The notes: generated by a model not told the origin, from the sequence alone. A DNA stretch of 27,873 nt from an uncultured Thermoplasmata archaeon (GCA_964585175.1 CAZPCW010000024.1:1-27873), one strand, 5' to 3'. Positions 1-22,039 are shown, counted from the stretch's first letter. Translations and numbers: made by a program.

Positions 1-2
1 AT

Positions 3-500
3 ACAGATGACGAAGAAAACCACTCCTACTCTGAATATCATTTTGAATTGAAGATGGAATCAGAAAACAAAACTACGGTTCTGTGGCCAATTCCTTATGA
101 CCCTTATGAAGAGGGGAGCGATAACACCTCAGAATTAGTGAATGAACTAAACATAAAAGAAGGAAATGGAGAAATTACTATTAATAAAACTAATCATGGC
201 AAGGCTTTAGAGGTTACCTTTAATGATTCAATCATAATTGAGGGGCATAAGAGACTTTACGAGGATACAAACGAGTATGAAGATGAGTGGGATCAATATT
301 TTTTTGAGGAATTAACCATGAAAAATAAAACAGAGAAACAGAAAGATTCCTATTTCGCATATTCTTCTTCAAATAATTTGAAAATAGTCAATTTCAATTG
401 TTACTATGAAAATGTTGGAAAACTTGATGGGGATCGAATTATTGGTAGGAGAATTAGTGATTTGACACTAGAAAAAGGCTGGCAATCCGTAGAGCTGTAA
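3..500 (+). CDS. Cassette protein A1 (5' end off-window); sequon-rich secreted-type paralog of 1261..1905
   Basis: Frame 3 is open from nt 3. The residues before the tracked Met (TDDEENHSYSEYHFELK) align with NTDSEDFHSYTEYHFELE of the 1261..1905 paralog, so the gene starts upstream of the window. Shared motifs: TVLWP-PYD, HG-AL-V-FN, KRLYED, LT-KGWQ. Several N-x-S/T sequons. Confidence 0.7.
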   Translation, partial: TDDEENHSYSEYHFELKMESENKTTVLWPIPYDPYEEGSDNTSELVNELNIKEGNGEITINKTNHGKALEVTFNDSIIIEGHKRLYEDTNEYEDEWDQYFFEELTMKNKTEKQKDSYFAYSSSNNLKIVNFNCYYENVGKLDGDRIIGRRISDLTLEKGWQSVEL

Positions 501-596
501 TTCAAATCCACCTTCGAGTACTTCGCCGATCCGGACCCGTCGGACCCCGATGTAGACTCCGACGACGACGGTCTGAATGATACGGAGGAGTACGAG

Positions 597-1253
597 ATGT
601 CTAACAATCCGGATGATGACTCGGTGGACGGCAGGGCTTTACCCACCAGAAAAGATATATTTGTAGAGGTGGATTATATGGACGGTCACGAGATGAGTGA
701 TGAAGCTAAGTGGAGAGTAGGTACACGCTTCCTGAACAACCCGACCGGTGATGAGATATGGCTGCATCTGGACGATGGTCTCATGGGTGGTGGGGAAGAG
801 ATAGAGCATAGAGATCCCTTGAGTGAAACTGAATTTAAGCAGGACCTTTACAACTCGAATTACAACGGGAACCATGGTTTCACTCAAAGCAGAAAAGGCA
901 AATTCCACTACTGTGTTTTTGCAGATGAGATATGGACAGGTAGATCTGGTATAAATCCTTCCTCTGTTAAAGAAACATTTGTCGTAGCTGACGGGCACAG
1001 TTTGGTTGATGATGTTACCGCACAAGCAGGGACATTCATGCATGAATTAGGTCACTCCCTTGGGCTCACCGGAACACCAGTCGGTAGACCAGGTTATTTC
1101 AAGGGTATAGACGAGGAATATAATCAAGATTATAAGAGTTGTATGAATTATGAATATCAGACCACGCTAATAGATTATTCTGATGGCTCCAATGGTGCTA
1201 AAGATCATGATGACTGGGCAGATGTAATGCAAGTCATGGATATCTGGATTTAG
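597..1253 (+). CDS. Cassette protein B1: HExxH zincin-like putative metalloprotease
   Basis: FMHELGHSLGL (HExxH) followed by SCMNY (possible Met-turn). The N-terminal 65 aa are near-identical to 1971..2615. GGAGGAG lies about 8 nt upstream of the ATG. No signal peptide in the ORF as drawn. Confidence 0.6.
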   Translation: MSNNPDDDSVDGRALPTRKDIFVEVDYMDGHEMSDEAKWRVGTRFLNNPTGDEIWLHLDDGLMGGGEEIEHRDPLSETEFKQDLYNSNYNGNHGFTQSRKGKFHYCVFADEIWTGRSGINPSSVKETFVVADGHSLVDDVTAQAGTFMHELGHSLGLTGTPVGRPGYFKGIDEEYNQDYKSCMNYEYQTTLIDYSDGSNGAKDHDDWADVMQVMDIWI

Positions 1254-1260
1254 TGATAAT

Positions 1261-1905
1261 ATGAACGTGAGTAAAAATTGGTATTTGATAGCAATAATAG
1301 TCATTCTGGTCGTAGCGATTACAGGCGGATATATTTATTTCGATGGCGAAGAAAATACAGATAGTGAAGATTTTCACTCTTACACTGAATATCATTTCGA
1401 ATTAGAAATGGAATCAGACAACCAAACAACTGTGTTATGGCCACTACCTTATGATGCAAAAGACAAATGGGATGAATCTCATGGCAATCTTTCTGAGATA
1501 GTGTATGAGCTTAAAGTCACTGAGGGAGATGGTTCTATCAATGTAAATAGTACTAAACATGGAAGAGCATTAAAAGTTAGCTTTAACGGAACAATCCGAA
1601 TCGAAGGGAATAAAAGGTTATACGAAGATGAATTCGAAGATGAAAAAGAGTATGAAAACAAGAGTCTTAAATACTTATTTGACGATTTAACCATGAGAAA
1701 TAAAACAAAACAGTCTAAAGAATTGTATTTTGTATGTTCTTCTAGTGATGACACTAAAATAGTTTACTTTGATTGTTACTCTAAACATGTAGGAAAATAT
1801 GATTCAAGTGGAACGATAGGGTTGTATATAGAAGAGTTGACATTGAAGAAAGGTTGGCAAACGATGGAGTTATCAGGAAATGCCCCAAATTACGAATCAC
1901 CGTAA
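1261..1905 (+). CDS. Cassette protein A2: N-terminal signal-anchor, sequon-rich extracellular-type protein
   Basis: Hydrophobic N-terminus WYLIAIIVILVVAITGGYIYF. Full-length paralog of A1. At least 7 N-x-S/T sequons. Starts 7 nt after the B1 stop. Confidence 0.7.
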   Translation: MNVSKNWYLIAIIVILVVAITGGYIYFDGEENTDSEDFHSYTEYHFELEMESDNQTTVLWPLPYDAKDKWDESHGNLSEIVYELKVTEGDGSINVNSTKHGRALKVSFNGTIRIEGNKRLYEDEFEDEKEYENKSLKYLFDDLTMRNKTKQSKELYFVCSSSDDTKIVYFDCYSKHVGKYDSSGTIGLYIEELTLKKGWQTMELSGNAPNYESP

Positions 1906-1970
1906 AACTAACAGGTCTAAAAGATAACGACGATTCCGGCGACGGCCTGAATGATACGGAGGAGTACGAG

Positions 1971-2615
1971 ATGTCCAACAATTCCGACACCTATTCCGTG
2001 GACGGCAGAGCAGTACCGACCAGAAAGGATATATTTGTAGAGGTGGATTATATGGACGGTCACGAGATGAGTGATGCGGCGAAGTGGAAAGTAGGCACGA
2101 GATTCCTGAACAACCCGACCGGTGAAGAGATATGGCTGCACATCGACGATGACCTCATGGGTGGCGGTGGGAATATCAATGACCATGAAGATAAGATCGA
2201 TGATGCAGATTGGGGGATAAACAATGGATACTTTGATCACCAAAATCAGAAATTTCACTATTGTCTGTTTGCACATCTAGATAAAGATAATCCTGATTCA
2301 GGATTAGGTACAGCAGATACTCCTGGTGATAAGCTTTGCCTTTTTGATGAAAATATAGAATCAGCGAGTGAGCAAGCGCATGTCTTTATGCATGAATTAG
2401 GACACAATATTATAAGTTTGTATGACCCTCAAAAAAGTTATTCTGAGCATAATCCGGATGCAGATCATTTAATTGATACGGATAGTGATCGGTACTATGA
2501 GCATTGTGATAATGAATGTGTTTTCCAAACAAGATTATCAAGTAGTGAACGAGAAAATATAATGAACTTCTGTGGTGAATGTTGGGATGCAATAAAGTTA
2601 TCTTATTCATTTTGA
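1971..2615 (+). CDS. Cassette protein B2: HExxH zincin-like putative metalloprotease (frame open upstream to TTG 1854)
   Basis: FMHELGHNI, KFHYCLFA and IMNF anchors are shared with B1. The conserved ATG at 1971 (..EEYEMSNN..) has the same GGAGGAG upstream as B1. The tracked ORF begins at a TTG (1854) that overlaps the A2 3' end. Confidence 0.6.
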   Translation: MSNNSDTYSVDGRAVPTRKDIFVEVDYMDGHEMSDAAKWKVGTRFLNNPTGEEIWLHIDDDLMGGGGNINDHEDKIDDADWGINNGYFDHQNQKFHYCLFAHLDKDNPDSGLGTADTPGDKLCLFDENIESASEQAHVFMHELGHNIISLYDPQKSYSEHNPDADHLIDTDSDRYYEHCDNECVFQTRLSSSERENIMNFCGECWDAIKLSYSF

Positions 2616-2628
2616 GAGGTGTAAAATT

Positions 2629-3171
2629 ATGAAGATGGCTAAAATACAGAAAATAAAGGTTCTAGTTTTTTGTCTAATTTTACTTTCTACCTTTGTGTTT
2701 GGCTGTATTGAAGAAGAAAACACCAATGAAAAAGAAGAATATCACAAATATCGTCTCAAGGTAGAAATTGAAAATTTAAAAGAAAAGGGTAATTCAACTT
2801 TAGTAATACCCTTTCCTAAAAAAGATAATAAATTAAATAATAGAATTTTTGAAGATGTTAAAGTGAAAAGCGGTGATTGTGATATCTCTAGTAATATTTC
2901 GAAGTATGGTAAAGGTTTAAGTTTAAAATTTAAGGATGATTTTTCAATGGTATCTGAAGGTGAAATTGATAAAAATATCTGGGATTATCAATTAAGTCTA
3001 AAAAACGAGAGTACATATTGGATATACTCAAGTTCAGATTGCCATTTTAATTTTGAATATGCAAAAGAATCTGACGAAGGAACTTATACAAAACATATAG
3101 ATGAATGTGAAAAAAATTTAACTGAAGGCTGGCAGTTAGTTGAAATCAATAAACAGGTCATAAATGAATAA
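2629..3171 (+). CDS. Cassette protein A3: divergent, AT-rich lipoprotein-type member of the A family
   Basis: Signal peptide with a lipobox-like LSTFVFGC. Distant similarity to A1/A2: Y-YRLKVE near the N-terminus, KYGKGLSLKF vs KHG-AL-V-F, and C-terminal LTEGWQLVE vs LT-KGWQ-VE/ME. Same position in the cassette order. Confidence 0.6.
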   Translation: MKMAKIQKIKVLVFCLILLSTFVFGCIEEENTNEKEEYHKYRLKVEIENLKEKGNSTLVIPFPKKDNKLNNRIFEDVKVKSGDCDISSNISKYGKGLSLKFKDDFSMVSEGEIDKNIWDYQLSLKNESTYWIYSSSDCHFNFEYAKESDEGTYTKHIDECEKNLTEGWQLVEINKQVINE

Positions 3172-3465
3172 TTCGTCGAGCTCGATTAGATGACTGGTCA
3201 CGAGATGAGTGATGCGGCGAAGTGGAAAGTCGGCACGAGATTCCTGAACAACCCGACCGGTGAAGAGATATGGCTGCACATCGATGCCCGTTCCACTCCG
3301 ATGAATCACAGATTCATCTGCATCCTCGGAAATAGCTTTCCTGCGGACGATGGTCTCATGGGTGGCGGTGAATCAATAGAGCATAGAGATCCTTTGAGGT
3401 GCTTTGATTCTCACATTTTTCACAATTTGATGATAAAAAAATGCGAGTTTAAAGAGAAGGGATAA
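3172..3465 (+). pseudogene. B3 remnant: truncated at both ends, mosaic copy of the B gene
   Basis: It starts mid-gene at FVELD*MTGHE (compare IFVEVDYMDGHE) with an in-frame TAG at 3187-3189. Nt 3192-3285 are almost identical to 2057-2148 (B2). A 60-nt in-frame insertion follows, then a B1-like DDGLMGGGESIEHRDPL segment. Homology is then lost and no HExxH remains. Confidence 0.8.
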
Positions 3466-3560
3466 ATGATATATACTCTGTACGCAATTTTACCAATGTG
3501 TACCATGTGTACAATACGACAGCATGTTCGCAATATCCGAAGCTTCGGAGGTGTTTATGA

Positions 3561-4553
3561 ATGAAGTTCAAACCCAGCCCTTTTTACCTATATCCGATCG
3601 AAGAGCCGTATTTGGATAATTTATTCGTCGATAGGGAGGAAGAACTGAAAATAGCTGAGGACCCTTTCACTTCCGAGTATATAGAGCAATCATCTATTTC
3701 CGAAATCTGTGCGGTCATCGGAGATATAGGAAGTGGGAAGTCAAGTCTATTGAACTATATCAGAGCATCTGTGGAGAAGGAAAACTTTGATGTCAGCTAC
3801 CACAACCAGGAGGATGAAACTTTTCCTACCGCCAAAATCTTTGAAGGGGGTAGCGATGTCTATATAATAGACGATGTGGATAAGCTCGATGAAGGGAAAG
3901 CTAGGCAGTTTTACACCACGCTGGAGAAGGCGATAAGTAAATGCAATCTCATATATTTCAGCGAGACTTATAGAAGAGATGAAGATTTGGTCAAGCTGAG
4001 GAACTCAACTGTCTCTGAGAATATAATCCTCCCCAGATTTTTAAAAGAAGAGACTTTAAAGGATATCTTGGAGAAACGGATGAAAAACTGCTTAACCAGC
4101 TCTGAATCGGAGTTCGAATTTCCCTTTTCTGATCAAGCAATCAAGATGGCGTCCATAAGGAGTGGAAACAACTTGAGAAGGTTCTTCAAGTATTGTAAAG
4201 AAGCCTGGAAGATGAGCGAGAATAAAGAACACATCGAAGACGATACCATGAAAAAAGGAATATCCATGATAGATAGAGAACTAATTTCAAGGCTCGACAT
4301 GAACGAAATACAGATCCTTTGGTCAATTACTGAGAGTGCTAAAAACAAGAAATATACCGCCAATCGAACAAATGTCAACAGGAAAACGCTAGACAGGGTG
4401 TTAAGAGAAGGACCATTGAAGAATCTAGTGGAATCTGAGAGAAAGGGCAATCAGGTTATGCTCAAATCAATATATTCAAGATTACCTGAGGGTAAAGAGA
4501 TCCTAAAAGATATCTACGCTAGGATGGGCGTCGATATAGAAAGTCTGTTTTGA
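3561..4553 (+). CDS. Orphan P-loop NTPase (archaeal-ATPase/Orc1-Cdc6-like) with a probable C-terminal winged helix
   Basis: Walker A GDIGSGKSS and Walker B VYIIDDVD. N-terminal FVDREEEL motif typical of the archaeal ATPase / ORC-like families. GGAGGTG lies 7 nt upstream of the ATG. Confidence 0.65.
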   Translation: MKFKPSPFYLYPIEEPYLDNLFVDREEELKIAEDPFTSEYIEQSSISEICAVIGDIGSGKSSLLNYIRASVEKENFDVSYHNQEDETFPTAKIFEGGSDVYIIDDVDKLDEGKARQFYTTLEKAISKCNLIYFSETYRRDEDLVKLRNSTVSENIILPRFLKEETLKDILEKRMKNCLTSSESEFEFPFSDQAIKMASIRSGNNLRRFFKYCKEAWKMSENKEHIEDDTMKKGISMIDRELISRLDMNEIQILWSITESAKNKKYTANRTNVNRKTLDRVLREGPLKNLVESERKGNQVMLKSIYSRLPEGKEILKDIYARMGVDIESLF

Positions 4554-4595
4554 GAAATATTTCCGTTGATCTCTCCCACCTGCATTTGATTTGGA

Positions 4596-4923
4596 TCAAA
4601 TTATAGGCAGAGGGTCTGGTGATTTGACACTAGAAAAAGGCTGGCAATCCGTAGAGCTGTAATTCAAATCCACCTTCGAGTACTTCGCCGACCCGGACCC
4701 GTCGGACCCCGATGTAGACTCCGACGACGACGGCCTGAATGATACGGAGGAGTACGAGATGTCCAACGATCCGGATGATGACTCGGTCAACGGCAGGGCT
4801 TTACCCACCAGAAAAGATATATTTGTAGAAGTGGATTGGATGGACGGTCACGAGATGAAGGACGCTGCTAAATGGAGAGTAGACCCGCCCTTCCTGAAAC
4901 CGGCGATCACATCTATCCCCTAA
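4596..4923 (+). pseudogene. Orphan A-3'end/B-5'end cassette fragment (copy of nt ~434-745)
   Basis: Near-identical at nucleotide level to 457-745. It encodes ..DLTLEKGWQSVEL, TAA (4660-4662), FKSTFEYFADPDPSDPDVDSDDDGLNDTEEYE, then ATG 4759 MSNDPDDDSVNGRALPTRKDIFVEVDWMDGHEMKDAAKWRV. It then diverges and stops at 4921-4923. No protease domain. Confidence 0.85.
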
Positions 4924-5146
4924 AACCGTTTCAAATCCGTGCTATATATAACATATCTAGTACGAGGATCTCCACCAACTAGTAAACCAAAACCACAAGA
5001 TTCTCCAACCCCTACTCACAGATTTAAAACACTATTCTCGGATATATAAAGTCCAAATCCATTCTGTTCCAAATTCGGAAGATAGTTAGTACACTAAATT
5101 AGTGAGATTTATTAGCCCTTTAGTTTCTAATTTGTAGTCAAAAAGT

Positions 5147-5654
5147 TCAATCGAATATCGCCTCAATATCTTTGACTTTAGTGTTGTCTTTCTTTTCGAT
5201 ATCCTCTACAATATTCTTCACCTCATCCTCGTCGATGACTCCCTTTTTAAGACCGATCCTCAGTATGGAATGGAGTGTGAGTGTATTGACCCCTTACTCT
5301 CTAGCAAATTTAAGAGCTAGATTATCTAATGAGGAAAATACGTGATCTCTTTCCATACAGGCGACGAGGGCTTCAATCTCACCTTTATCTAGGTGGATTG
5401 TCCTCTAAGAGGAGCTCTTGATATCTCTTCTGTTCTTCATCGGTAAGAGATATCACATCGATCTCATCGTATATCTTCTCGGGGAAATCGTATCCAAAAT
5501 CTAGAGGCACGCTAAGTTCATCGTATATCTCTTGTGTGATCTTTAGAAGACCTTGAGAAAAGATATTTTTCAATAATGTCAATCTATCGATCTTGGCGAA
5601 TGTGGAGATGATGTCCGTATCGAGGATGATGGTTTTAGTCAAGGAATTTATCAA
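5147..5654 (-). pseudogene. Decayed PIN-domain (DUF3368/VapC-like) toxin gene
   Basis: The tracked 89-aa ORF (IILDTDIISTFAKI..) stops at 5385-5387. The remainder continues in another frame from 5392 (LDKGEIEALVACMERDHVFSSLDNLALKFARE), hits an in-frame TAA at 5294-5296, then reads GVNTLTLHSILRIGLKKGVIDEDEV..AIFD to a stop at 5147-5149. Confidence 0.7.
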
Positions 5655-5940
5655 CCTCTTTATCTAATGTCTCGGTATCTTGTACCTTTATCTCCCTTTT
5701 TATCCCCCGGGAGTTCAGTATGTTTTTAAAACCCTCCTGTGAAACACCGGCGATCTCAGCAGCCCGTCCCAGACTTACCTTACCTTCTTTATACAATCCA
5801 ACGGCCACCTCTATTCGGATTTCAGGTTTTACTTCCAATAACGTTTTGAAAGCCTCATCCATCAGTTTTTCTTTGTTTTCAAAATAGCCGGAGTGAATGA
5901 GACTATCCATCCCTTCCTTAACAACCTTTGATCCAGTCAA
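5635..5940 (-). CDS. UPF0175-family antitoxin-like protein
   Basis: AVGLYKEGKVSLGRAAEIAGVSQEGFKNILNSRGI matches the UPF0175 signature. It overlaps the PIN gene start by 20 nt. The tracked start is TTG, and ATG at 5910 (MDSLIHSGYF) is an alternative start. Confidence 0.75.
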   Translation of the reverse strand: MTGSKVVKEGMDSLIHSGYFENKEKLMDEAFKTLLEVKPEIRIEVAVGLYKEGKVSLGRAAEIAGVSQEGFKNILNSRGIKREIKVQDTETLDKEVDKFLD

Positions 5941-6097
5941 TTCAATCCACTCTATATATAAGATAATCCAATTTATTATTTTAAGGTTTTGCTTTTTTAG
6001 GCTTCATCTAAGGTTATTTATAATCAGACGAAAATCTAATTATAACATTTTGGGATTAAGGCTCATCATGGCAGGGCTTTAAAAGGACCCTTAATGA

Positions 6098-6218
6098 TCA
6101 AACCAAAATTGAAGAGTGTAAGAGACATTACGAGGATACAAATAAGTATAAAAATGAGAGGAATCAATATTTTTTGAGTAATTAACGATGAGAAATAAAA
6201 CAGAGGAACAGAAAGGCA
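6098..6218 (+). pseudogene. Degraded internal fragment of an A-family gene
   Basis: Nucleotide similarity to 231-350 (..aagagac-ttacgaggatacaaa..gatcaatattttttgag-aattaac-atga-aaataaaacagag-aacagaaag), with stops in every frame. Confidence 0.75.
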
Positions 6219-6224
6219 CCTAAT

Positions 6225-6242
6225 TTTTAGGCTCACCTAAAA
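6225..6242. promoter_or_regulatory. Candidate DtxR-family operator overlapping the dtxR-feoB promoter
   Basis: Perfect inverted repeat TTTTAGG-ctca-CCTAAAA. The TTAGG/CCTAA half-sites resemble DtxR/IdeR boxes, although the arm spacing differs. It is followed by the TATA-like TTAAATAA at 6245-6252, about 25 nt upstream of ATG 6276. Confidence 0.45.
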
Positions 6243-6275
6243 CTTAAATAACATCGACATTGTGCATCTATATGT

Positions 6276-6713
6276 ATGAACAAGAACACCCGAGAAGAAT
6301 ATCTTGAAGCTCTCTACAAGTTATCTGCACAAAATGAAAAGGAAGAAGTAAAGACCGGGGAGATAGCGGAAGCGATGGGGGTTGCTCCTCCGAGCGTTAC
6401 TGAAGTTCTAACGGGGTTAGATGAAGACGGTTTTGTAGAATATATTCCTTACAAAGGTGCCAGATTGACTGAAAAAGGAAAAGAAGAAGGAAAGAGGATA
6501 GTCAGGACCCACAGGGTTCTGGAGGTGTTCCTAGTAGAGTACTTTTCTATGGATGGAGAAGCGATCCACGAGAAGGCTTGTGAGATGGAGCATATCTTTG
6601 ACATGGAGATGATAGATACGATGTGTGAAAGGTTAGGAGCTCCAACTCAATGTCCGCACGGCAAGCCCATCCCGTCCTGCAGCGAGACCGAATGTCCAGT
6701 GGAGGATAATTGA
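6276..6713 (+). CDS. DtxR/MntR-family metal-dependent transcriptional regulator (two-domain form)
   Basis: wHTH region plus the metal-binding/dimerisation region: RTHRVLEVFL, ACEMEHIF, CPHGKPIP. Confidence 0.9.
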   Translation: MNKNTREEYLEALYKLSAQNEKEEVKTGEIAEAMGVAPPSVTEVLTGLDEDGFVEYIPYKGARLTEKGKEEGKRIVRTHRVLEVFLVEYFSMDGEAIHEKACEMEHIFDMEMIDTMCERLGAPTQCPHGKPIPSCSETECPVEDN

Positions 6714-8668
6714 AGATGAGATACGCTAGAGAAACGTTAGACATAGGAGAGGATGATGAAGTTCACGTTCTCGTGGGAAATCCAAACGTTGGCAAGTCGG
6801 TCGTTTTCTCAGAGCTGACCGGAACTTACAGAGAGGTATCGAACTTTCCGGGAACCACCGTCGAGGTAAGCACGGGTAAATTATCACTCACGGAAAGAGA
6901 GGAAGTCCTGATAGATACGCCCGGAGCCGACTCACTCACGCCGATCTCTGAAGAGGAAAAAGTTACGAGAGATATACTGCTCGGGACGGACCCTGATACG
7001 ATCATCCAGACCGCAGATGCCAAGAATCTCAAGCGGGCGATGATGCTGTTCCTTCAGCTCTCGGAATTTGGACTTCCCGCTGTCCTAAATCTGAACATGA
7101 TCGACGAAGCGAAAACCCGCCTGATAGATATAGACATGGAAGGATTATCCAACGAAATCGGCATTCCGGTGGTCGGGACGGTCGCTCCCGAGGGTAGAGG
7201 TATAAATGAATTGGAATCCAAAATGAAGGAAGCCAGCGTGCCTGACGTGAAGCCGGAGTATCCTTCGGCTATAGAGAAAGGTCTGAAAGATCTGACAGAA
7301 ATTTTCGGAAACAGAGGCGTCGCGCTCCTTTACCTCTCAGTTCCGGATGAGATGGAGGATTATATCCGCGAGAAGATCGGAGAAGACGAGCTTCAAAAAG
7401 CTCAAAAAGTGCTAGACAGCTTGAGTAAAAAGTTCAGCAGAGACCTGTCCTATCTTATAACCATGAGTATAAGAGAGAAGGCGGAAGAACTCGCATCTAA
7501 GTACATGAAAAAAGAAGACGTTGAAAGTACAACCTGGAAAGAGAAGATAAGCGAAATGACCATGCGTCCCTTGACCGGCATACCGATATTTCTGTTGGTG
7601 CTCTTACTCCTATACGAATTTGTAGGATTTGTCGGGGCACAGCTGATAGTGGATAACTTGGAAGTCGGCGTTTTTCAGGCTCACGTCAACCCTTTCGTCA
7701 AGACAAATATATACGACCTCATGGGCAAAAACTTCGTCTCTAGAATACTCGTCGGCGAGTACGGAGTTATAACTGTCGGATTGACCTGGGCTGTCGCGCT
7801 CATACTTCCTATCATAACGACTTTCTTCCTAGCGTTCTCACTTTTAGAGGATGTGGGATACATCCCCAGATTAGCGGCCATGGCGGATAAAGGTTTGAGA
7901 CGTGTAGGACTGAACGGTAAAGCGGTCCTGCCGATGGTGCTCGGCTTCGGCTGTGATACCATGGCGACGCTGACGACTAGAGTTTTAGATACTAAAAAAG
8001 AGAGGGTCATAGGTACGACCATGCTCGCGCTAGGAATACCCTGCTCGGCCCAGCTGGGCGTTCTTTTCGCTATAATGGCCACGCTTCCCATACATTTTTT
8101 CTTCCTATGGGCTCTGATCGTATTTTCCCAGCTTCTTTTTGTGGCGTGGGCCGCCTCCAAGATACTGCCGGGTAGAAGAGGAGATTTTATAATGGAACTT
8201 CCTCCGCTCAGAGTACCGAAATGGAGGAACGTGCTGCGTAAAACTTACTACAAGGTAGTCATGTTTTTCAAGGAGGTTGTTCCGCTTTTCGTTCTTGGAA
8301 CTTTCCTTGTGAGCGTTGCGAACCTCACCGGAGTTTTGGACATGATGATCAAAGCTCTTGAACCGATAGCGGTTTCTTGGCTCGGTCTACCTTCAGATAC
8401 CTCTATAGTTTTCATACTGGGTTTCTTAAGAAGGGATTTTGGAGCCGCGGGCCTCCTGAATATGGCCGGTAGTTTGACACAGCTTCAGATGCTTGTCGCC
8501 CTCGTAGCGATCACTCTATTCATACCCTGCGTGGCTAACGTATTGGTTATAATCAAAGAGAGAGGTTTGAAGACCGCAGCTGCTATCATCGCTTTCATCA
8601 TACCTTTCGCCTTCTTCGTAGCGGGTGTATTGAACCATCTCTCGAGGTTCTTAGGAGGTTTGGTGTGA
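6710..8668 (+). CDS. feoB: Ferrous iron transporter FeoB
   Basis: G-domain motifs GNPNVGKS and DTPG, followed by a polytopic membrane domain. The tracked TTG start overlaps the dtxR stop; ATG 6716 is an alternative start. Confidence 0.95.
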   Translation: MKMRYARETLDIGEDDEVHVLVGNPNVGKSVVFSELTGTYREVSNFPGTTVEVSTGKLSLTEREEVLIDTPGADSLTPISEEEKVTRDILLGTDPDTIIQTADAKNLKRAMMLFLQLSEFGLPAVLNLNMIDEAKTRLIDIDMEGLSNEIGIPVVGTVAPEGRGINELESKMKEASVPDVKPEYPSAIEKGLKDLTEIFGNRGVALLYLSVPDEMEDYIREKIGEDELQKAQKVLDSLSKKFSRDLSYLITMSIREKAEELASKYMKKEDVESTTWKEKISEMTMRPLTGIPIFLLVLLLLYEFVGFVGAQLIVDNLEVGVFQAHVNPFVKTNIYDLMGKNFVSRILVGEYGVITVGLTWAVALILPIITTFFLAFSLLEDVGYIPRLAAMADKGLRRVGLNGKAVLPMVLGFGCDTMATLTTRVLDTKKERVIGTTMLALGIPCSAQLGVLFAIMATLPIHFFFLWALIVFSQLLFVAWAASKILPGRRGDFIMELPPLRVPKWRNVLRKTYYKVVMFFKEVVPLFVLGTFLVSVANLTGVLDMMIKALEPIAVSWLGLPSDTSIVFILGFLRRDFGAAGLLNMAGSLTQLQMLVALVAITLFIPCVANVLVIIKERGLKTAAAIIAFIIPFAFFVAGVLNHLSRFLGGLV

Positions 8669-8817
8669 TGGAGCATAAGTGCCCGCTTTGTGGGAAGGAA
8701 TTCGACGAAGGCGAGGTCAATTCATGTGAGTCGTGTCCTCTGCAAGGGAGTTGCAGCATGATACGATGTCCTGAATGTGGTTATGAATTCATTCCAGATG
8801 TAGACGAGAGGAGTTGA
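8668..8817 (+). CDS. Small Cys-rich zinc-ribbon protein (49 aa), translationally coupled to feoB
   Basis: Absent from the ORF track (below 60 aa). Its ATG overlaps the feoB TGA (gtGATGg). Sequence MEHKCPLCGKEFDEGEVNSCESCPLQGSCSMIRCPECGYEFIPDVDERS has three CxxC pairs. The next gene starts 6 nt downstream. Confidence 0.6.
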   Translation: MEHKCPLCGKEFDEGEVNSCESCPLQGSCSMIRCPECGYEFIPDVDERS

Positions 8818-8823
8818 GAAGAT

Positions 8824-9549
8824 ATGGTAGATGAAGAATTATCGGATATAGAATTGGATGAAGCTCTAGAAGTGTTATGGACTTTAGAAGAGGAGGGTAA
8901 AAGAGATATAGAGAGCTTTAAGGAGAGGATGACTCAAAGAGCCAACAACGGTTCCTCCTCAGAACACAGAAAAAGGTTCAGACGAGGTCATGGACACGAT
9001 ATAACGGAACAGGTTCTCGCCGAACTTCAAAAGAGAAATCTGGTCGCGAAGCGAGAGGGAAAGGTGAAGTTGACCGAAAAAGGCCATAATTCGGCTAGAG
9101 ATATAGTCAGGAGGCATAGGTTAGCGGAAAGACTGATGGTCGATGTACTTGACATGGGCCCTGAAGAGATAGAAAAACCGGCCTGTGAATTCGAGCATCT
9201 TTTATCGGAAGAGGTCACGGAAAGGATATGTACCCTTCTAGGCCATCCAAGAGAATGTCCCCATGGAAAACCCATACCGAAGGGCGAGTGCTGCTCGAAA
9301 AGAAAAGGTACATTAAAACCAGCTGTCACTTCCTTCACAGACGTTTCAATTGGAGAGGAAGTTAAGATAGCGTACATCCACACCCAAGACCATTCGAGCC
9401 TACACAAGCTGCTTTCTTACGATATAGGCCCTGGATCTCGAGCGGAACTTCTCCAAAAGACACCGGTCTACGTGATAAAGGCAGGAGAGACAGAGATCGC
9501 CGTCGAAGAGGATGTCTTGAAAAATATATTCGTCAAGAGACTGGAGTGA
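8824..9549 (+). CDS. DtxR/IdeR-family regulator with a C-terminal FeoA/SH3-like domain
   Basis: RRHRLAERLM, ACEFEHLL, CPHGKPIP, then an SH3-like tail (VKIAYIHTQD..LLSYDIGPGS). The N-terminal wHTH carries a basic, His-rich insertion (SSEHRKRFRRGHGHD). Confidence 0.85.
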   Translation: MVDEELSDIELDEALEVLWTLEEEGKRDIESFKERMTQRANNGSSSEHRKRFRRGHGHDITEQVLAELQKRNLVAKREGKVKLTEKGHNSARDIVRRHRLAERLMVDVLDMGPEEIEKPACEFEHLLSEEVTERICTLLGHPRECPHGKPIPKGECCSKRKGTLKPAVTSFTDVSIGEEVKIAYIHTQDHSSLHKLLSYDIGPGSRAELLQKTPVYVIKAGETEIAVEEDVLKNIFVKRLE

Positions 9550-9634
9550 ACCCGGTCCCGAAAAATCTTTCTTCTATAAATTTTAGATCTCTAAACATCG
9601 ATATATCTTTATTTTTCACTTAACCTAGGCCTCA

Positions 9635-10186
9635 TCAGCAGCAAGAAGTTTCACTGTTATCGGATCCGCAGCACTCCGAGGTTTGACTTTGAGGTCCACA
9701 GCAGCTCGAATCTATACTTTCTTCTCTTTTTTCTATACCGACGACCTTTTTCACTGCTTCTTCGATCATCTCTTTAGGTATAGTTTCATAAGTATTCCCT
9801 TCATATTCGAAAATCCGGCAGTCGTTACCGCCTCCAGTGATCTCGTAGCATTCCGGACCAGTAACGTCCTCGCAGGAGGGGCAGTAATTGTCCTTTATCT
9901 CGTAATCCTCATTCACGATAACTTCGATATCCGTACCGTCGATCCTCAAGGTAGGTGATCTGGTCAAGTCGTGTTTTTTGGCCTGCTCGTCACTCCTGAT
10001 CTTCGTTTTGTTTATGGTTATAGAATCGATATCATTCTGATGGATATCTTCCCTCAATTCCCTCACAGCTTCATCTAAAGTTTTATCGCTGGATTTACAT
10101 CTCTCACACTCCGAAAGATCCACGTAGAGGAAATCTATCTTTAATCTATTTTCCTTTTCTTCATTTCCAACATCGCCCATGGACAC
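9635..10186 (-). CDS. DUF2703-like thioredoxin-fold protein with a Cys-rich C-terminal tail
   Basis: LKIDFLYVDLSECERCKSSDKTLDEAV ... SPTLRIDGTDIE fits my recollection of the DUF2703 pattern. The tail is CCGPQSQTSE-CCGSDNSETS-CC. Confidence 0.55.
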   Translation of the reverse strand: MSMGDVGNEEKENRLKIDFLYVDLSECERCKSSDKTLDEAVRELREDIHQNDIDSITINKTKIRSDEQAKKHDLTRSPTLRIDGTDIEVIVNEDYEIKDNYCPSCEDVTGPECYEITGGGNDCRIFEYEGNTYETIPKEMIEEAVKKVVGIEKREESIDSSCCGPQSQTSECCGSDNSETSCC

Positions 10187-10301
10187 AATATCACTTGGTT
10201 ACTTACTACAAAAATTTAAGTATATAAGCTTTTGTAGTGGGAGGAAGGAAAATAGAAATAATAGCCTCTAAAACATTAATCAAATCGGTTTGATCCTATC
10301 G

Positions 10302-10310
10302 AAAAAAAAA
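10302..10310 (-). terminator. Oligo-T tract immediately 3' of tRNA-Val
   Basis: Nine consecutive T (minus strand) directly after the discriminator base. This is the usual archaeal termination signal. Confidence 0.5.
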
Positions 10311-10385
10311 TGGGCCCAGCCGGATTTGAACCGGCGAGCTTCGCCTCGTGAAGGCGACGTTCTAACCAATCTAAACCATGAGCCC
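10311..10385 (-). tRNA. tRNA-Val (anticodon CAC), CCA not encoded
   Basis: The minus strand GGGCTCATGGTTTAGATTGGTTAGAACGTCGCCTTCACGAGGCGAAGCTCGCCGGTTCAAATCCGGCTGGGCCCA folds as a cloverleaf. It has a 7-bp acceptor stem, anticodon stem TCGCC/GGCGA with loop TTCACGA, and a TTCAAAT T-loop. Confidence 0.9.
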
Positions 10386-10522
10386 GTAATCTATCCACGT
10401 TATAGAAAAGGCACGGTAATAAAATTTTTTATTTCGAATCTCGCGACCTATTCTCTAATCAGCACGAGAGGTTCATTATTCAAACAACGGATTTAAATAC
10501 CTCTCGTTTAATCATCTCACGG

Positions 10523-10909
10523 ATGGAACTGAACGAATTTGATTTTGAAGTCCAGATAAGGTGCCCTAGGTTCCCGACCGAAAATAAAGAGACACTGATA
10601 CGGTGTCTCTCTAAAGTATTTCCCAAAACCGATTGGGATATAGGAAAAGAAGAGATAGAAGGTAGGACCGAATACCTGACCAGATTTAAAAAGATCTTGA
10701 AAGATATGAAGATAAGAGATACCGCCAGAAAATTATTGAAAAGCAGAGCGACCGAAAATCAGTGTACTTTTTCACTTAACAAACAAGCTACATGCAACGA
10801 GAAAGTGAATTTTTCCGAAGAGGAACAACCTCTCGGAAAGGTAGAAGTAATCATCGAATGTGGGGAGATAGAGGAACTGATACAGAACTTGACGGAGACG
10901 GAGGAATAA
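10523..10909 (+). CDS. UPF0201-family (COG1931) putative RNA-binding protein
   Basis: Size about 130 aa. Pattern PTENKETL..KVFP .. DTARKLL .. FSLNKQA .. PLGKVEV fits my recollection of the archaeal UPF0201 family. Confidence 0.55.
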   Translation: MELNEFDFEVQIRCPRFPTENKETLIRCLSKVFPKTDWDIGKEEIEGRTEYLTRFKKILKDMKIRDTARKLLKSRATENQCTFSLNKQATCNEKVNFSEEEQPLGKVEVIIECGEIEELIQNLTETEE

Positions 10910-10910
10910 A

Positions 10911-11669
10911 ATGATATTGGCCTCCAACCCGAAATTCTCTCTGATGCCTTTTCACAAAGCTCTCCAAAATGTAGAGGAAGAATTCGATGGTTGGGAGATC
11001 CTGGCGGAAAAAAATCACAGCTGGAAATACAGGGAAGAGATCGAAGACGCTCTTTCCACGACAGAGATGGAAGTTCAAATCCATGCTCCTCTGAACGATA
11101 TAAATATATCTAGCATAAATCCGGATATGAGAAAGGCCAGCGTTAAAGAGGTAAAAAAATCTATAAAACTGGCTTCGACGATCGGGGCGAACATCGTGAC
11201 CGTTCACCCGGGCCTGTACTCTCCTTTGAGCAGGTATTGGGACGGTACGACCGAACTCGCCAAGGAATCTCTAGGCGACCTGAAAAGTTTTTCCGAAGAA
11301 CACGACGTAAAACTCGCAATGGAAAACCTTCCGGAGATGTGGTTGAGTATATGCAGTACACCGGATGAAACGAGGGATTTTCTTGAAGAATTGAATATAA
11401 ACTTCTGCCTCGATATCGGACACGCCTATACCGCGGACTCTCTGGATAGATTTTTGGAATTCTCTCCTCAAAACCTGCATCTCCACGACAACAATGGAGG
11501 GGAAGATAAACATCTTGCTCTAGGAGAGGGAGAAATAGATATCAAAAACGCGCTCCGATCCCTGGATGGCTACGAAGGAAACTTTGTCATCGAGGGAAGA
11601 GCTATGGAGGAGCTAAAAAAGAGTAAAAAACGTCTGGAATCGATGCTGAAAGAATTGGATATGGTATAA
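10911..11669 (+). CDS. Xylose-isomerase-like TIM-barrel protein (sugar phosphate isomerase/epimerase family)
   Basis: IHAP, VTVHPG, AMENL, LDIGHA, LHLHDN and GEGEID motifs occur in the order typical of the AP_endonuc_2 TIM-barrel fold. Starts 1 nt after the previous stop. Confidence 0.75.
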   Translation: MILASNPKFSLMPFHKALQNVEEEFDGWEILAEKNHSWKYREEIEDALSTTEMEVQIHAPLNDINISSINPDMRKASVKEVKKSIKLASTIGANIVTVHPGLYSPLSRYWDGTTELAKESLGDLKSFSEEHDVKLAMENLPEMWLSICSTPDETRDFLEELNINFCLDIGHAYTADSLDRFLEFSPQNLHLHDNNGGEDKHLALGEGEIDIKNALRSLDGYEGNFVIEGRAMEELKKSKKRLESMLKELDMV

Positions 11670-11693
11670 ATAAATACTTGAAGGGGTTTAAAA

Positions 11694-12677
11694 ATGGACT
11701 TCGTAATAATCGCCTATCTGGTGGCGATAGCCTTCTGTCTCTTTATGAGCGGACGATTTTCGGGCACCGAGACAGCTATAACTGCTTTAGACAAGATAGA
11801 GATCTCGCAGATGGTAGAGAAAGACTTGAAGCACGCCGAAAAGATAGAGTATCTGAAAAAGAACATGGATCAGACTATCACAGCTATTTTGATAGGGAAT
11901 AACATAGTTAATGTAGCCGCCCCCACTCTAGTCACTGTACTGGTAAAGGATCTTATCGGCAATTGGGCCGTTTCAATCGCCAGTGGAGTTCTGACATTGA
12001 TACTTTTAATAGTCGGTGAGATAACTCCTAAAGGCTATTCGCTCAAAAACAAGAAAAAATTCAGCATGAATAACGCCTTTTTGATCTATTATATGTCCAT
12101 CATATTTAAACCGCTCATAAAGGCGCTGAACGAGTTATCCGACTACATTATCGAGGCTTTGGGCGGAGAAACTAAATTCGATGAGTTGAAAGTCTCTGAA
12201 AAAGAGGTGATGCAGCTCGCCTCTATGCTGGAAGAGAAAGGAGTGATAAAAAAGATCGAGAAAGAGATCCTTCAGCGAGTTTTCTGGTTTGGTGATCAGA
12301 AGGTCAAGGTGGTTAAAGTACCTAAACAGGAGACCTATGCTTTAGACTCTGGCTTGACTAGAGAAGAGGCGGCTAATTTCATCAAGGAACACGGTTTCAC
12401 ACGACTACCCGTAATTAAGCACGAATCCGACCAAGTTATTGGCATACTGTACAGCAAGGAGATCCTCGGAAAAGAAGGAGGAAAAGTCAAGGATTACATG
12501 CGTGAACCGTATTTTGTGAAAAACAATGATGACATCACTAGGATCTTCGAACGTATGCGTAAGGAGAGAATACATATGGCTATTGTCAGGGACAAGGAAG
12601 GGAACTTTGACGGCATAATCACTTTGGAGGATATATTGGAGGAACTGGTCGGAGAGATATACGACGAATTCGACTGA
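11694..12677 (+). CDS. CNNM/DUF21 membrane domain plus CBS-pair protein (CorB/TlyC-like)
   Basis: N-terminal multi-TM DUF21-like region (SGTETAITALD), followed by a tandem CBS region. No CorC_HlyC C-terminal domain is evident. Confidence 0.8.
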   Translation: MDFVIIAYLVAIAFCLFMSGRFSGTETAITALDKIEISQMVEKDLKHAEKIEYLKKNMDQTITAILIGNNIVNVAAPTLVTVLVKDLIGNWAVSIASGVLTLILLIVGEITPKGYSLKNKKKFSMNNAFLIYYMSIIFKPLIKALNELSDYIIEALGGETKFDELKVSEKEVMQLASMLEEKGVIKKIEKEILQRVFWFGDQKVKVVKVPKQETYALDSGLTREEAANFIKEHGFTRLPVIKHESDQVIGILYSKEILGKEGGKVKDYMREPYFVKNNDDITRIFERMRKERIHMAIVRDKEGNFDGIITLEDILEELVGEIYDEFD

Positions 12678-19324: not shown

Positions 19325-20152
19325 ATGGGAGACGATAAGTTCAGTTCTATATTGACCCTCGCCAAAAAGGAATTTATGGATAACGTTCGGAGCAAGTGGA
19401 TATTACTGCTGACCGCGGCGTTCATCGGATTCATACTGCTGGTAGCGGTTTATCAGGGATATGTACAGGACAGTGCAAGTTTTGAGGATATTATACAATA
19501 CGCTTTGAGTTTGGTTTCCATGTTTTTCTCTCTAATAGCGATCATGTTGGGATACAATGCGATAACTACTGAGATAGAATCCAGCTCTATAGGACTTCTT
19601 TTGACTTCAAAATTGGATAGAAAAGATATCTTAGTAGGAAAATTCCTCGGTCTCGCCTCCGTTTTAGCTTTCTCTATAGTAGTCGGATTGGGCCTTGGAG
19701 GAATAATAAACGGAATCAGCAACGGTTTCGATGGAGGCTGGAATTACTTAGGATTCATCTTTTTTTCGCTGATGTTCAGTCTAGCATTTTTAAGCATCTC
19801 CATGATGATGTCCAGCTTATTCAAAAAGAATTCTAGAGCTTTAGCAGGAGGTATATTCGTTTGGATATTCTTTAATATCATCTGGAGCCTCGTGTTGACA
19901 GGAATAATGGTAGCAAGTGGAGTTGATTTTAACGGGATCACAAGCTTGAGCGATTATCCTAAATGGTATTTCATAGCCGGCCTTGGAAATCCTGAGAATA
20001 TTTTGAGCTACTCTACGACTACTCTGCTCAACGACGGTACAACATATCTTCCCGATATTCTTAGATTAGAACTACTTACCGGATCTCAGCTTGTTTGGAT
20101 AATCGCTCCTCTGTTGGTCGCTTTTCTAGTGTTCAGTAGAAAAGACATATGA
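19325..20152 (+). CDS. ABC-2 family permease
   Basis: Six predicted TM helices. N-terminal LAKKEFMDNVRSKW is typical of NosY-like ABC-2 permeases. Starts 2 nt after the ATPase stop. Confidence 0.8.
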   Translation: MGDDKFSSILTLAKKEFMDNVRSKWILLLTAAFIGFILLVAVYQGYVQDSASFEDIIQYALSLVSMFFSLIAIMLGYNAITTEIESSSIGLLLTSKLDRKDILVGKFLGLASVLAFSIVVGLGLGGIINGISNGFDGGWNYLGFIFFSLMFSLAFLSISMMMSSLFKKNSRALAGGIFVWIFFNIIWSLVLTGIMVASGVDFNGITSLSDYPKWYFIAGLGNPENILSYSTTTLLNDGTTYLPDILRLELLTGSQLVWIIAPLLVAFLVFSRKDI

Positions 20153-20486
20153 GTAGAAAAGTCATTTTTTTCTTTTCTCAATTTACTCTTTATTAAGATA
20201 ATTTGAAAAAAAGAAAATCAAGCATTCTTGGTAAATTGAAAGGAAAACGAGTTTATTATAATGTCTTTGATCGTATTTTGAGGTCTTTTCTAACTGTTAA
20301 CTTATGTAAAATACTCATTTTATCTTGATATCCCTAGATTAAACTAGGCTGAGTATATCGCTAAAAAATGAAGAAGATCATTTCGAATATAATATTTGGC
20401 TATCGACAAGCTCTTTCTGGTATGATATTCCCGTCATCATTATTAAATTCCGATAAAATTTTATACGCCTTCGAGTTTTATTCATT

Positions 20487-20708
20487 ATGATTCCATATAT
20501 ACTGTTAGCTTTCCTGTTCCTGATCGGATTACCGAACGCACTCTGGCCCTACAAAATAGCTAGGTTTAGTGAACAAATCGATGCGATAGGGAGCAAAAGG
20601 GCTTGGTCCGAAGTGGAGCCCGCCGATTGGAAGGTCTATTTGACTAAGTGGAGCGGAATTCTGTTGATGATTTTTGCCGTGATATTTGTCATCATGACTC
20701 TGTTATGA
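20487..20708 (+). CDS. Small two-TM membrane protein
   Basis: Hydrophobic N- and C-terminal helices. TATA-like aaattttata lies about 25 nt upstream. Confidence 0.45.
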   Translation: MIPYILLAFLFLIGLPNALWPYKIARFSEQIDAIGSKRAWSEVEPADWKVYLTKWSGILLMIFAVIFVIMTLL

Positions 20709-20824: not shown

Positions 20825-20992
20825 CGAACCTAAAGATTCTCATCGCTTTGGTCACAAAAAGAAGTGCTCCCGCCGGGATTCTTGTAGGAATTTTCATCAA
20901 AAATTCCTACAGCTCACAAATCATAGATTTGTTCACGAACCTAAAGGGTCTCATCCCTCTAGTCACAAAAAGAAGTGCTCCCGCCGGGATTC
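20825..20992. repeat. 57-bp direct repeat pair (20825-20881 and 20936-20992) duplicating the 3' end of tRNA-Glu plus its downstream flank
   Basis: The last 31 nt are identical (gtcacaaaaagaagtgctcccgccgggattc), with 5 mismatches in the remainder. The first copy contains the terminal 17 nt of the tRNA but no tRNA body. The 54-nt spacer holds two hairpins. Confidence 0.85.
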
Positions 20993-21050
20993 GAACCCGG
21001 GTCTTTGGCTCGAGAGGCCAAGATGGTTGGCCGAACTACACTACAGGAGC
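20976..21050 (-). tRNA. tRNA-Glu (anticodon CUC), CCA not encoded
   Basis: The minus strand GCTCCTGTAGTGTAGTTCGGCCAACCATCTTGGCCTCTCGAGCCAAAGACCCGGGTTCGAATCCCGGCGGGAGCA folds as a cloverleaf. Anticodon stem TTGGC/GCCAA with loop CTCTCGA; T-arm CCGGG-TTCGAAT-CCCGG. Confidence 0.9.
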
Positions 21051-21408: not shown

Positions 21409-21603
21409 ATGGAAGGCACCGTTAAGTTCTTCAACGACATGAAGAACTATGGTTTCATCGAGCCCGAAGATGGCGGCGAAGATCTCTTCGTCCATCGCAG
21501 CGGCCTTGAATGCAACTCCCTCACAGAAGGGGACGAAGTTACATTCGAGACCGAAGAAAGTGAAAAAGGGCCCAGAGCTATCAACGTAGAAAAAGTAGAG
21601 TAA
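21409..21603 (+). CDS. csp: Cold-shock domain protein
   Basis: GTVKFFNDMKNYGFIEPEDGGEDLFVHRS contains RNP1/RNP2-like motifs (NYGFI, LFVH). 64 aa. Strong SD. Confidence 0.9.
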   Translation: MEGTVKFFNDMKNYGFIEPEDGGEDLFVHRSGLECNSLTEGDEVTFETEESEKGPRAINVEKVE

Positions 21604-21658
21604 ATAGTTCTTTTCTAAGGTCTATTAAAAATCGTTAGGGACTCACAATCCTCATCTT

Positions 21659-21817
21659 TTACTCAACATTGCTTTTGAATTTGCTCATCACTTTTCGTAT
21701 TTCGTCACATTTTTCGTCTATTTCCTCGTTAGCCTCTGCAGCTTTTGAGAGAGTAGCAGCTACTAAAACAGAGCTGCTCTCATCTTCGTTATCTTCGACT
21801 ATCTTGTTTATACTCAT
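21659..21817 (-). CDS. Small acidic hypothetical protein (52 aa)
   Basis: Absent from the ORF track. Sequence MSINKIVEDNEDESSSVLVAATLSKAAEANEEIDEKCDEIRKVMSKFKSNVE. GGAGGTGA lies 6 nt upstream of the ATG, and TTAAATATA lies about 26 nt further upstream. The overlapping plus-strand ORF 21669..21857 is a low-complexity Ser/Leu mirror. Confidence 0.5.
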   Translation of the reverse strand: MSINKIVEDNEDESSSVLVAATLSKAAEANEEIDEKCDEIRKVMSKFKSNVE

Positions 21818-22039
21818 TCTAATCACCTCCAGATGGTTGCAAATATATTTAATGTGAATAGTCTCATTAAAACTTTTTGTAATTTCGGAAACTCACTATA
21901 GGTTTTTCACTTATCTCCATCTTTTTGCTTCTAAAATTATTTCTTCTTACACTTTATTAATAAAATATAAAGAAAAAGAGTGAAATTGTTTTAGTATAAG
22001 TGGATAAACTGTGTTTTTTGGAACACCCAATGAGACCTA

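Follow-up and report, generated by a model that had tools for sequence, protein, structure and literature searches.

At the left end of a 27,873-nucleotide stretch of DNA from an uncultured Thermoplasmata archaeon (GCA_964585175.1 CAZPCW010000024.1:1-27873), two kinds of gene, termed A and B here, alternate in tandem. The whole stretch is called the window below. The A genes encode small, sequon-rich proteins with predicted surface anchors, and the B genes encode metzincin-like proteins, in which a near-identical 5' part, the head, is followed by a divergent tail. Here, we explore this array together with related loci in comparison assemblies and contigs (labelled L001-L157), and suggest that it may be the store of exchangeable cassettes of a secreted protease, whose downstream neighbours would be its inhibitors or immunity proteins.

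The array of A and B genes

Based on the listing of open reading frames (ORFs), translation and repeat finding, the gene order is A1, B1, A2, B2, A3, the remnant of a third B gene (B3), an ATPase gene, an orphan A-tail/B-head fragment, a toxin-antitoxin pair and a fragment of an A gene (Table 1). The order and coordinates that an initial annotation of the window had given were all confirmed. B1 is in frame with A1, and its first ATG lies at 597; both this ATG and the conserved one of B2 at 1971 have a GGAGG 8 nucleotides upstream. The orphan fragment is 90% identical to positions 424-736, and the toxin-antitoxin pair (5385-5940) is placed between it and the A fragment, in the decayed terminal part of the array. 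B3 and both fragments are clear wrecks.

The head module codes for one TSP3-like calcium-binding motif and the first beta-alpha-beta unit of the protease domain. The B heads in the window share 81-92% nucleotide identity and have a GC content of 52-54%, compared with 27-34% in the A genes and 35-41% in the B tails. B1 and B2 have 86% of residues in common in the head and 25% in the tail, and the divergent tail of B2 is Cys-rich (HELGH ... CxxCW..SF). A1 and A2 are 56-57% identical, while A3 shares 28% with A2 and is AT-rich, with 27% GC. Sequons (N-x-S/T) occur 2.2-3.6 times per 100 residues in the A proteins, for example six in the 165 residues of A1, against 0.5 in the other long ORFs of the window, and B1 and B2 contain none or one. 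The picture drawn by the initial annotation, that is, GC-richer and almost identical heads, diverged tails, A1 and A2 half identical, A3 barely alike and sequon-rich A proteins, is borne out by these values. It had also named an assembly duplication artefact as what would refute it; such an artefact is contradicted, since the copies are diverged and are also present in the independent assemblies L003, L006 and L007.

Judged from L006 and L012, both described below, the window appears to hold only the orphan or stored-cassette part of the system, and a main gene with a signal peptide would lie beyond its left edge.

Table 1. Features of the array at the left end of the window, with positions counted from its first nucleotide (HMM, hidden Markov model).
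Feature	Position	Strand	Description
A1, 5'-truncated	3-500, past left edge	+	Ends ...EKGWQSVEL, TAA 498-500; A-family HMM E=7e-43
Head module, copy 1	501-794	+	FKSTFEYFADPDPSDPDVDSDDDGLNDTEEYE, then ATG 597, then ...RKDIFVEVDYMDGHEM...DDGLMGGG; 52% GC
B1	597-1253 (open frame from 501)	+	218 amino acids; metzincin-like; FMHELGH, SCMNY; without signal peptide
Gene-conversion patch in B1	668-689	+	22 bp; 7 differences from the B1 of L006
A2	1261-1905	+	Complete, 214 amino acids, A-family; N-terminal membrane anchor
B2	1854-2615; head 1917-2168; conserved ATG 1971	+	-1 frame relative to A2; without signal peptide
A3	2629-3171	+	180-amino-acid A-family lipoprotein; lipobox FVFGC; 27% GC; GAGGTG 7 nucleotides before ATG
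B3 remnant	3172-3465	+	Partial head kept, tail gone; TAG replaces Tyr of VEVDYM; insert 3286-3345
P-loop ATPase	3561-4553	+	Weak PF01637/AAA_16 matches
Orphan A-tail/B-head	4586-4923	+	Last 25 A codons, same TAA, head; breaks off past ...HEMKDAAKWRV
PIN/DUF3368 toxin	5385-5654	-	Pfam label from identical gene in L006
UPF0175 antitoxin	5635-5940	-	Pfam label from identical gene in L006
Decayed A fragment	6057-6225	+	About 82% identical to 185-355 of A1; stops in all three frames

The B and A protein families

The AF2 model of B, built on 97 homologues, has a predicted local distance difference test score (pLDDT) of 87.9. In a Foldseek search of the PDB, the top match of the B model is profragilysin/BFT (probability 0.99), followed by serralysin, PAPP-A2 and ADAM10, and the best matches are all metzincins. 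Consequently, the zincin label and the protease-like fold expected for B in the initial annotation hold. Fragilysin, the M12B adamalysins/reprolysins and the M10B serralysins, which are the closest structural matches to B, also give weak sequence-profile matches, and the B profile finds snake-venom M12B and serralysin proteases among the PDB sequences with E ~1e-3. However, identity to fragilysin and the other metzincins is just 12-15%, at TM-scores of 0.4-0.5 (0.43-0.53 for profragilysin-3), and the Pfam family Reprolysin_3 (PF13582) scores B1 and B2 with 18.5 and 18.1 bits, under its gathering threshold of 22.4.

Both B1 and B2 contain FMHELGH, and the HExxH is located on helix 172-186 of the model. 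Among the 97 homologues, H181, G184 and H185 are invariant, E182 is nearly so, and a S-x-M-N-Y motif (S213, M215, N216, Y217), Met-turn-like by sequence, is nearly invariant; it resembles the Met-turns of astacins and serralysins. At the third zinc-ligand position of HExxHxxGxx(H/D), neither B1 (HELGHSLGLTG, with Gly there) nor B2 (HELGHNIISLY) has His or Asp, although the distant homologues P0014, P0025 and P0073 have His. A conserved G-x-D (G-I-D in B1), about 17 residues further on, may serve as a substitute third ligand. Therefore, B is called metzincin-like and is not assigned to a named family. As for the TSP3 repeat proposed for B, it stands as a motif, with one DxDxDGxxDxxE unit, and fails as a Pfam domain in B1 and B2, where neither PF02412 nor PF18884 matches at E<=1; PF18884 does match B homologues and the main genes.

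Relatives of B number at least 427 among species-representative genomes and at least 404 in a scan of JGI metagenomes. They belong overwhelmingly to Thermoplasmatota, with outliers in haloarchaea, Asgard archaea, Chloroflexota and Myxococcus. Most of them are single genes without an adjoining A, coding for 500-840 amino acids, in which a signal peptide and N-terminal domains precede TSP3 repeats and a C-terminal protease. The closest relatives of the window fall in a B subclade that has the layout of a main gene plus cassettes.

The A profile finds 257 clusters of 50% identity with E<=1e-3, and in almost every case these are stand-alone proteins of 180-210 amino acids. Of 122 members, 51 contain a lipobox-like motif, and a membrane anchor at the N-terminus was seen in the others that were inspected. 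No Pfam or NCBIfam match was obtained for A, and PADLOC was likewise empty for A and B. A and B are two unannotated, undescribed protein families. Proteins in which B and A are fused were sought among the few multi-domain A matches scanned with Pfam, and none was found; these matches occur in TPR, multi-pass membrane, PKD and DUF5801/RTX contexts. The idea that A is a homologue of the beta domain preceding TSP3 in the main gene was also rejected, as the A profile has no match in the main-gene ORFs of L006 and L012 at E<=1e-3. It was observed in addition that P0165, a DUF5801/RTX-repeat giant of 2,464 amino acids, contains 11 matches to positions 39-107 of the A profile, which suggests that the N-terminal half of A is a widespread beta-sandwich module.

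Shared heads, diverse tails and the pairing of A with B

The array recurs in L003, L004, L008, L009, L010, L012, L013, L025, L090, L094, L100 and L157, and loci of this type are common in Thermoplasmata assemblies from sediments and hydrothermal sites. The resemblance to polymorphic toxin loci that had been pointed out for the window thus extends to other Thermoplasmata. For example, L012 encodes an intact protein of 907 amino acids that has a signal peptide and an fn3 domain. Its gene precedes one for a lipoprotein, after which four B cassettes or fragments, which lack signal peptides, alternate with genes for small lipoproteins or membrane proteins. In L157 and L090, giant PKD/TSP3 proteins (1,902 and at least 2,259 amino acids, respectively) end in B and are followed by an A-family or lipoprotein gene. 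The scaffolds of the main genes comprise PKD, fn3 and TSP3 domains. L100 has six head-plus-tail cassettes with an anchored protein after each, and its array closes with A, next to a gene on the opposite strand. Where the limits can be seen, the first gene of an array is a main gene with B at its end (L012, L157) and the last is an A (L010, L100, L157). The same ordered architecture is found in distant lineages with different head sequences (L100, L013).

The assembly L006 (GCA_905333815.1) is 99.9% identical to positions 506-11905 of the window and has no similarity to it upstream of 509. In place of A1, L006 has an ORF of 606 amino acids running through the module into B1. The preceding ORF codes for 397 amino acids with a signal peptide and fn3, and the 397- and 606-amino-acid ORFs together are collinear with the main gene of L012. 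The two are separated only by a frameshift in a C-run (GTCTCCCCCCTTCG; L006 7940-8020), which could be a sequencing error or a phase-variable tract. Since the main ORF of L006 runs straight into B1, we read the same B1 as a stored cassette in the window and as the putative expressed C-terminus of the main gene in L006. The A1|B1 junction of the window is confirmed independently in a third assembly, L003, with diverged sequence.

Over the 11.4 kb shared with L006 there are 10 mismatches, 7 of which fall within 668-689. At all 7 positions the B1 of the window is the same as its own B2, and the B1 of L006 is the same as the B1 of L003. The patch is thus a short gene-conversion tract from B2; it is not the product of the assembler, because the identity of B1 and B2 flanking it is too short for that. 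Heads within a locus are 84-99% identical, with a mean of 90.8%, compared with a mean of 71.9% between loci; in the window, L009, L012, L013 and L100 the repeated heads of a locus share 80-99%. Within a genome, the synonymous divergence (pS) is 0.12-0.48 for heads and 0.69-0.87, that is, saturated, for tails. Heads cluster by genome and tails group by type across genomes: B1-type tails were found in the window, L003, L004, L008, L009 and L010, and the Cys-rich B2-type tails in the window, L008, L009 and L100. L006 and L012 differ in the tail type of their main genes, which are just 33-41% identical overall. The head ends at DDGxMGGG, past the first beta-alpha-beta unit of the protease domain, and consequently the exchangeable part would include the active-site helix and the Met-turn region. 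A conserved head, a variable tail and recombination had been proposed for the window; the first two are real, and the head bears marks of recombination in the conversion patch, the breakpoint of L006 exactly at the module and the clustering of heads by genome.

Then, which A belongs to which B? In the initial annotation each A was paired with the B behind it, and this register is probably off by one, for the conserved unit across at least 7 independent Thermoplasmata assemblies is probably a B tail with the A gene that comes after it. Five cross-locus comparisons have similar tails with both neighbours known, and in each of them the downstream similarity lies within 0.14-0.47 and the upstream similarity within 0.04-0.06, which is background. 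In six loci, a protein of the A1/A2 type comes after a B1-type tail, and the upstream neighbour of these tails varies (A1, a 207-amino-acid protein of another type, an unrelated 158-amino-acid protein, or the N-terminus of a main gene). Genes of the A3 type follow B2-type tails in three genomes (window, L008 and L009), and nearly every B is followed by a small anchored protein. Therefore, A2 is the probable partner of B1, and A3 that of B2. A first Mantel test gave r=0.37 and p=0.015 for B versus the downstream gene, and r=0.13 and p=0.27 for B versus the upstream gene. Because an enlarged test, considered below, does not discriminate, the statistical support for downstream pairing is modest, and the argument for it is based on the specific informative comparisons and the array ends.

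Across genomes, the nonsynonymous divergence (pN) of B1-type tails is 0.10-0.31 against a pS of 0.41-0.85, and that of A is ~0.25 against ~0.7, with pN far below pS in every between-genome pair. By this comparison, A and B1-type tails are under purifying selection and, as a class, are not pseudogenes in decay. Between the stop of A1 and ATG 597 there is no start codon, and this stretch has pN ~ pS between B1 and B2, so that it is probably untranslated in the stored copies.

An in-frame insert of 60 nucleotides (ARSTPMNHRFICILGNSFPA) is present in B3 at 3286-3345, between WLHID and DDGxMGGG, and forms two small hairpins whose loops vary between genomes. Inserts occur at exactly the same site in four further distinct loci (L001, L009, L012 and L013). 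A mobile or structured element was considered and rejected, since the fold is no better than that of shuffled sequence (z=0.06) and the insert sits in an intact B in L013; it is rather a subtype loop.

With respect to the neighbouring genes, the window and L009 (~3350-4458) each have a PF01637-like P-loop ATPase gene behind their last B remnant, and the ATPase of the window has weak PADLOC matches to PDC-M62A and mad3/8, which are candidate-defence models. Searching the whole window with Rfam revealed two tRNAs and nothing else. Near one tRNA gene (20976-21050), low-GC patches are found at 20001-20500 (31%) and 21501-22000 (34%) amid 41-50% GC.

Interpretation and known systems

We suggest that the array is part of a polymorphic-toxin-like, cassette-switching secreted protease system, in which the cognate surface partners would serve as inhibitors or immunity proteins. 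This function is inferred from sequence, and we consider the chances of the reading to be even. The full system would open with a main gene just left of the window, which is intact in L012 and fused to B1 in L006. Its product would comprise a signal peptide, fn3/PKD-type domains, a beta domain, a calcium-binding TSP3 linker and a C-terminal metzincin-like B, and directly downstream would come a small membrane- or lipid-anchored, N-glycosylated A. The further cassettes behind would each consist of a head of ~300 nucleotides like that of the main gene, a different protease tail and an A of its own downstream, the B lacking a signal peptide. Homologous recombination or gene conversion within the head would keep the heads of one genome alike, and the same recombination would move a stored tail, with the A behind it, into the expressed main gene, so that roughly two thirds of the catalytic domain would be replaced, the active-site helix and Met-turn region among them. 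At the surface of the producer itself, A would bind and neutralise the cognate protease. This role for A is suggested by its position, its co-variation with B and its predicted extracytoplasmic location (anchor plus sequons), and the location fits since a secreted protease would meet the producer's own surface there. In a stronger form, the system would be a true polymorphic effector, in which a surface or secreted metzincin attacks the envelope proteins of competitors, a surface-anchored glycoprotein inhibitor A protects the producer, and recombination inside the catalytic domain re-arms both by swapping the active-site half together with the immunity gene. We regard this form as a tentative possibility, on the doubtful side.

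Many observations weigh against the cassette-switching protease with cognate partners. The tails all have one fold, unlike the unrelated C-terminal domains of classical polymorphic toxins, and it is unusual for an exchange point to lie within a catalytic domain, as it does here. B members are mostly single secreted proteins without an A partner (71 of 80 Thermoplasmatota loci in one survey, and most in another), and consequently the protease is not inherently dangerous to its producer. With regard to pairing, the enlarged Mantel test, whose 36 cassettes include unrelated single-copy genes that dilute the signal, does not tell downstream from upstream pairing, and the main tail of L012 and its relatives have dissimilar downstream partners. 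The model of A is beta-rich with moderate confidence (pLDDT 74.5), and in a Foldseek search of the PDB it had no credible neighbour and no match to a known inhibitor. An island at 2258-8469 of L091 (JGI 3300041077) contains at least 6 A-family lipoprotein genes and other small lipoproteins, and no B; it may be a store of orphan 'immunity' genes or a family of variable surface lipoproteins. The junction in L006 may reflect a genuine deletion between heads, or else the assembly may have collapsed across the repeat. Finally, the stored B1 and B2 may be expressed as stand-alone, non-secreted proteins, since they are intact, have a plausible ATG with a GGAGG and, by the comparison above, are of a kind under purifying selection; the switching model does not need such expression.

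Instead of a weapon, the locus could also be a contingency surface-protein family, in which cassettes diversify a surface protease and a co-displayed A that is no inhibitor, for antigenic or phage-receptor variation or for substrate adaptation. The island of L091, with its near-identical signal peptides (MAEKGETKI.AI.TI...SGC.GDD) and no B, is consistent with this, as are the large family of sequon-rich surface lipoproteins to which A belongs, the partnerless B relatives and the main gene of L006 broken at a C-run that could be phase-variable. However, that frameshift is seen in one assembly only and may be a sequencing error, and the B tail type and the downstream A type travel together across genomes, as expected of interacting partners and not needed for independent variation; we regard such a family as rather unlikely. 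Slightly less probable to us is that a multi-domain protease was duplicated and broken by nonsense and frameshift mutations into a decaying array of paralogues, with A and B as leftovers or independent genes and the likeness of heads as the result of passive conversion without switching. The three wrecks in the window, the common frame of A1 and B1 with a single TAA between them, the lack of signal peptides in the stored B copies and the insertion of a toxin-antitoxin pair and an ATPase gene all agree with decay. On the other side, decay is at odds with the purifying selection on A and B1-type tails and with the ordered architecture repeated in distant lineages with other heads, and the absence of A-profile matches in the main-gene ORFs of L006 and L012 means that A is no detectable piece broken off a main gene.

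The same junctions could be thought to be recoded, with A as N-terminal pro-domain or anchor of the next B and the fusion made by read-through of TAA (A1/B1) or by a -1 frameshift (A2/B2). A single in-frame TAA is followed by homologue-coding sequence in A1/B1, the orphan copy, L003 and L004; a heptamer C_CCA_AAT (1884-1890), in the A2 frame, is located in the A2/B2 overlap, where a shift would join A2 to the B2 head; and positions 514-597 of the window fold as a long hairpin (-34.8 kcal/mol, z=-2.44), in which the GGAGG upstream of ATG 597 is buried. However, TAA terminates 7 of the 22 long ORFs in the window, hence the code is standard, and the frame relation of A and B differs in L008, L009, L012 and L100; an alternative code or read-through was rejected on these grounds. 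A frameshift at A2/B2 is unlikely as well, since the structure downstream of the heptamer is absent (z=+0.5). The hairpin pairs are broken by both substitutions in the orphan copy, and the equivalent region of B2 has no such fold; moreover, pN ~ pS in the stretch before the ATG, the upstream partners do not co-vary with B, and the arrays end in A. Recoding is thus very improbable.

How does the cassette-switching protease with cognate partners compare with known systems? In serralysin/AprA and Inh/AprI operons, a secreted metzincin is encoded beside a small exported protein that guards the envelope compartment of the producer. The adjacency of a secreted metzincin gene and a gene for a small exported protein is the same here; however, A has no detectable likeness in sequence or fold to those inhibitors, and the operons are single-copy, without cassette arrays. 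With polymorphic toxins of the Rhs and CdiA-CT/CdiI type (Zhang et al. 2012, PMC3482391), the locus shares a long, secreted protein of several domains that is variable in its C-terminal part, and a small partner gene directly downstream, followed by promoter-less cassettes of a C-terminal part plus partner that keep homology to the main gene, and a main-gene position that carries different C-terminal types in different genomes. The differences are that all C-terminal parts here are of one metzincin-like fold instead of unrelated toxin folds, that the region of homology and exchange lies inside the catalytic domain after the first beta-alpha-beta unit and not ahead of the domain, and that the partners are predicted extracytoplasmic lipoproteins or anchored glycoproteins of an unannotated family, in an archaeal host, and that toxicity here is putative. 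According to the same study, classical polymorphic toxin systems occur in ~15 of >225 archaeal genomes, most immunity protein superfamilies are absent from archaea, and metallopeptidase toxin domains are listed from bacteria only (PMC3482391). The VARTIG module of Thermococcales (Makarova et al. 2021, PMC8416519) is likewise archaeal; recombination makes the C-terminal region of its large, secreted multi-domain protein hypervariable, the downstream genes vary, and its authors liken the organisation to polymorphic toxin systems. However, the variable part of VARTIG is an Ig domain and no enzyme, unlike the protease domain with HExxH here, and the taxon and the partner families differ. In full-text literature searches, whose coverage did not extend to a 2019 mBio survey of archaeal conflict systems, no description of the A/B pairing was found.

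How archaea compete with or recognise one another is poorly understood. Should the partners prove to be specific inhibitors, A would be a new family of metzincin inhibitors, the locus would provide an example of domain-internal cassette switching in an enzyme, and a handle would be gained on antagonism and self-recognition among uncultured archaea. If the stronger reading as an effector is true, the system would be an archaeal, protease-based counterpart of Rhs/CDI, built from two undescribed families. Even a modest reading defines two unannotated protein families and corrects the pairing of these genes in annotation.

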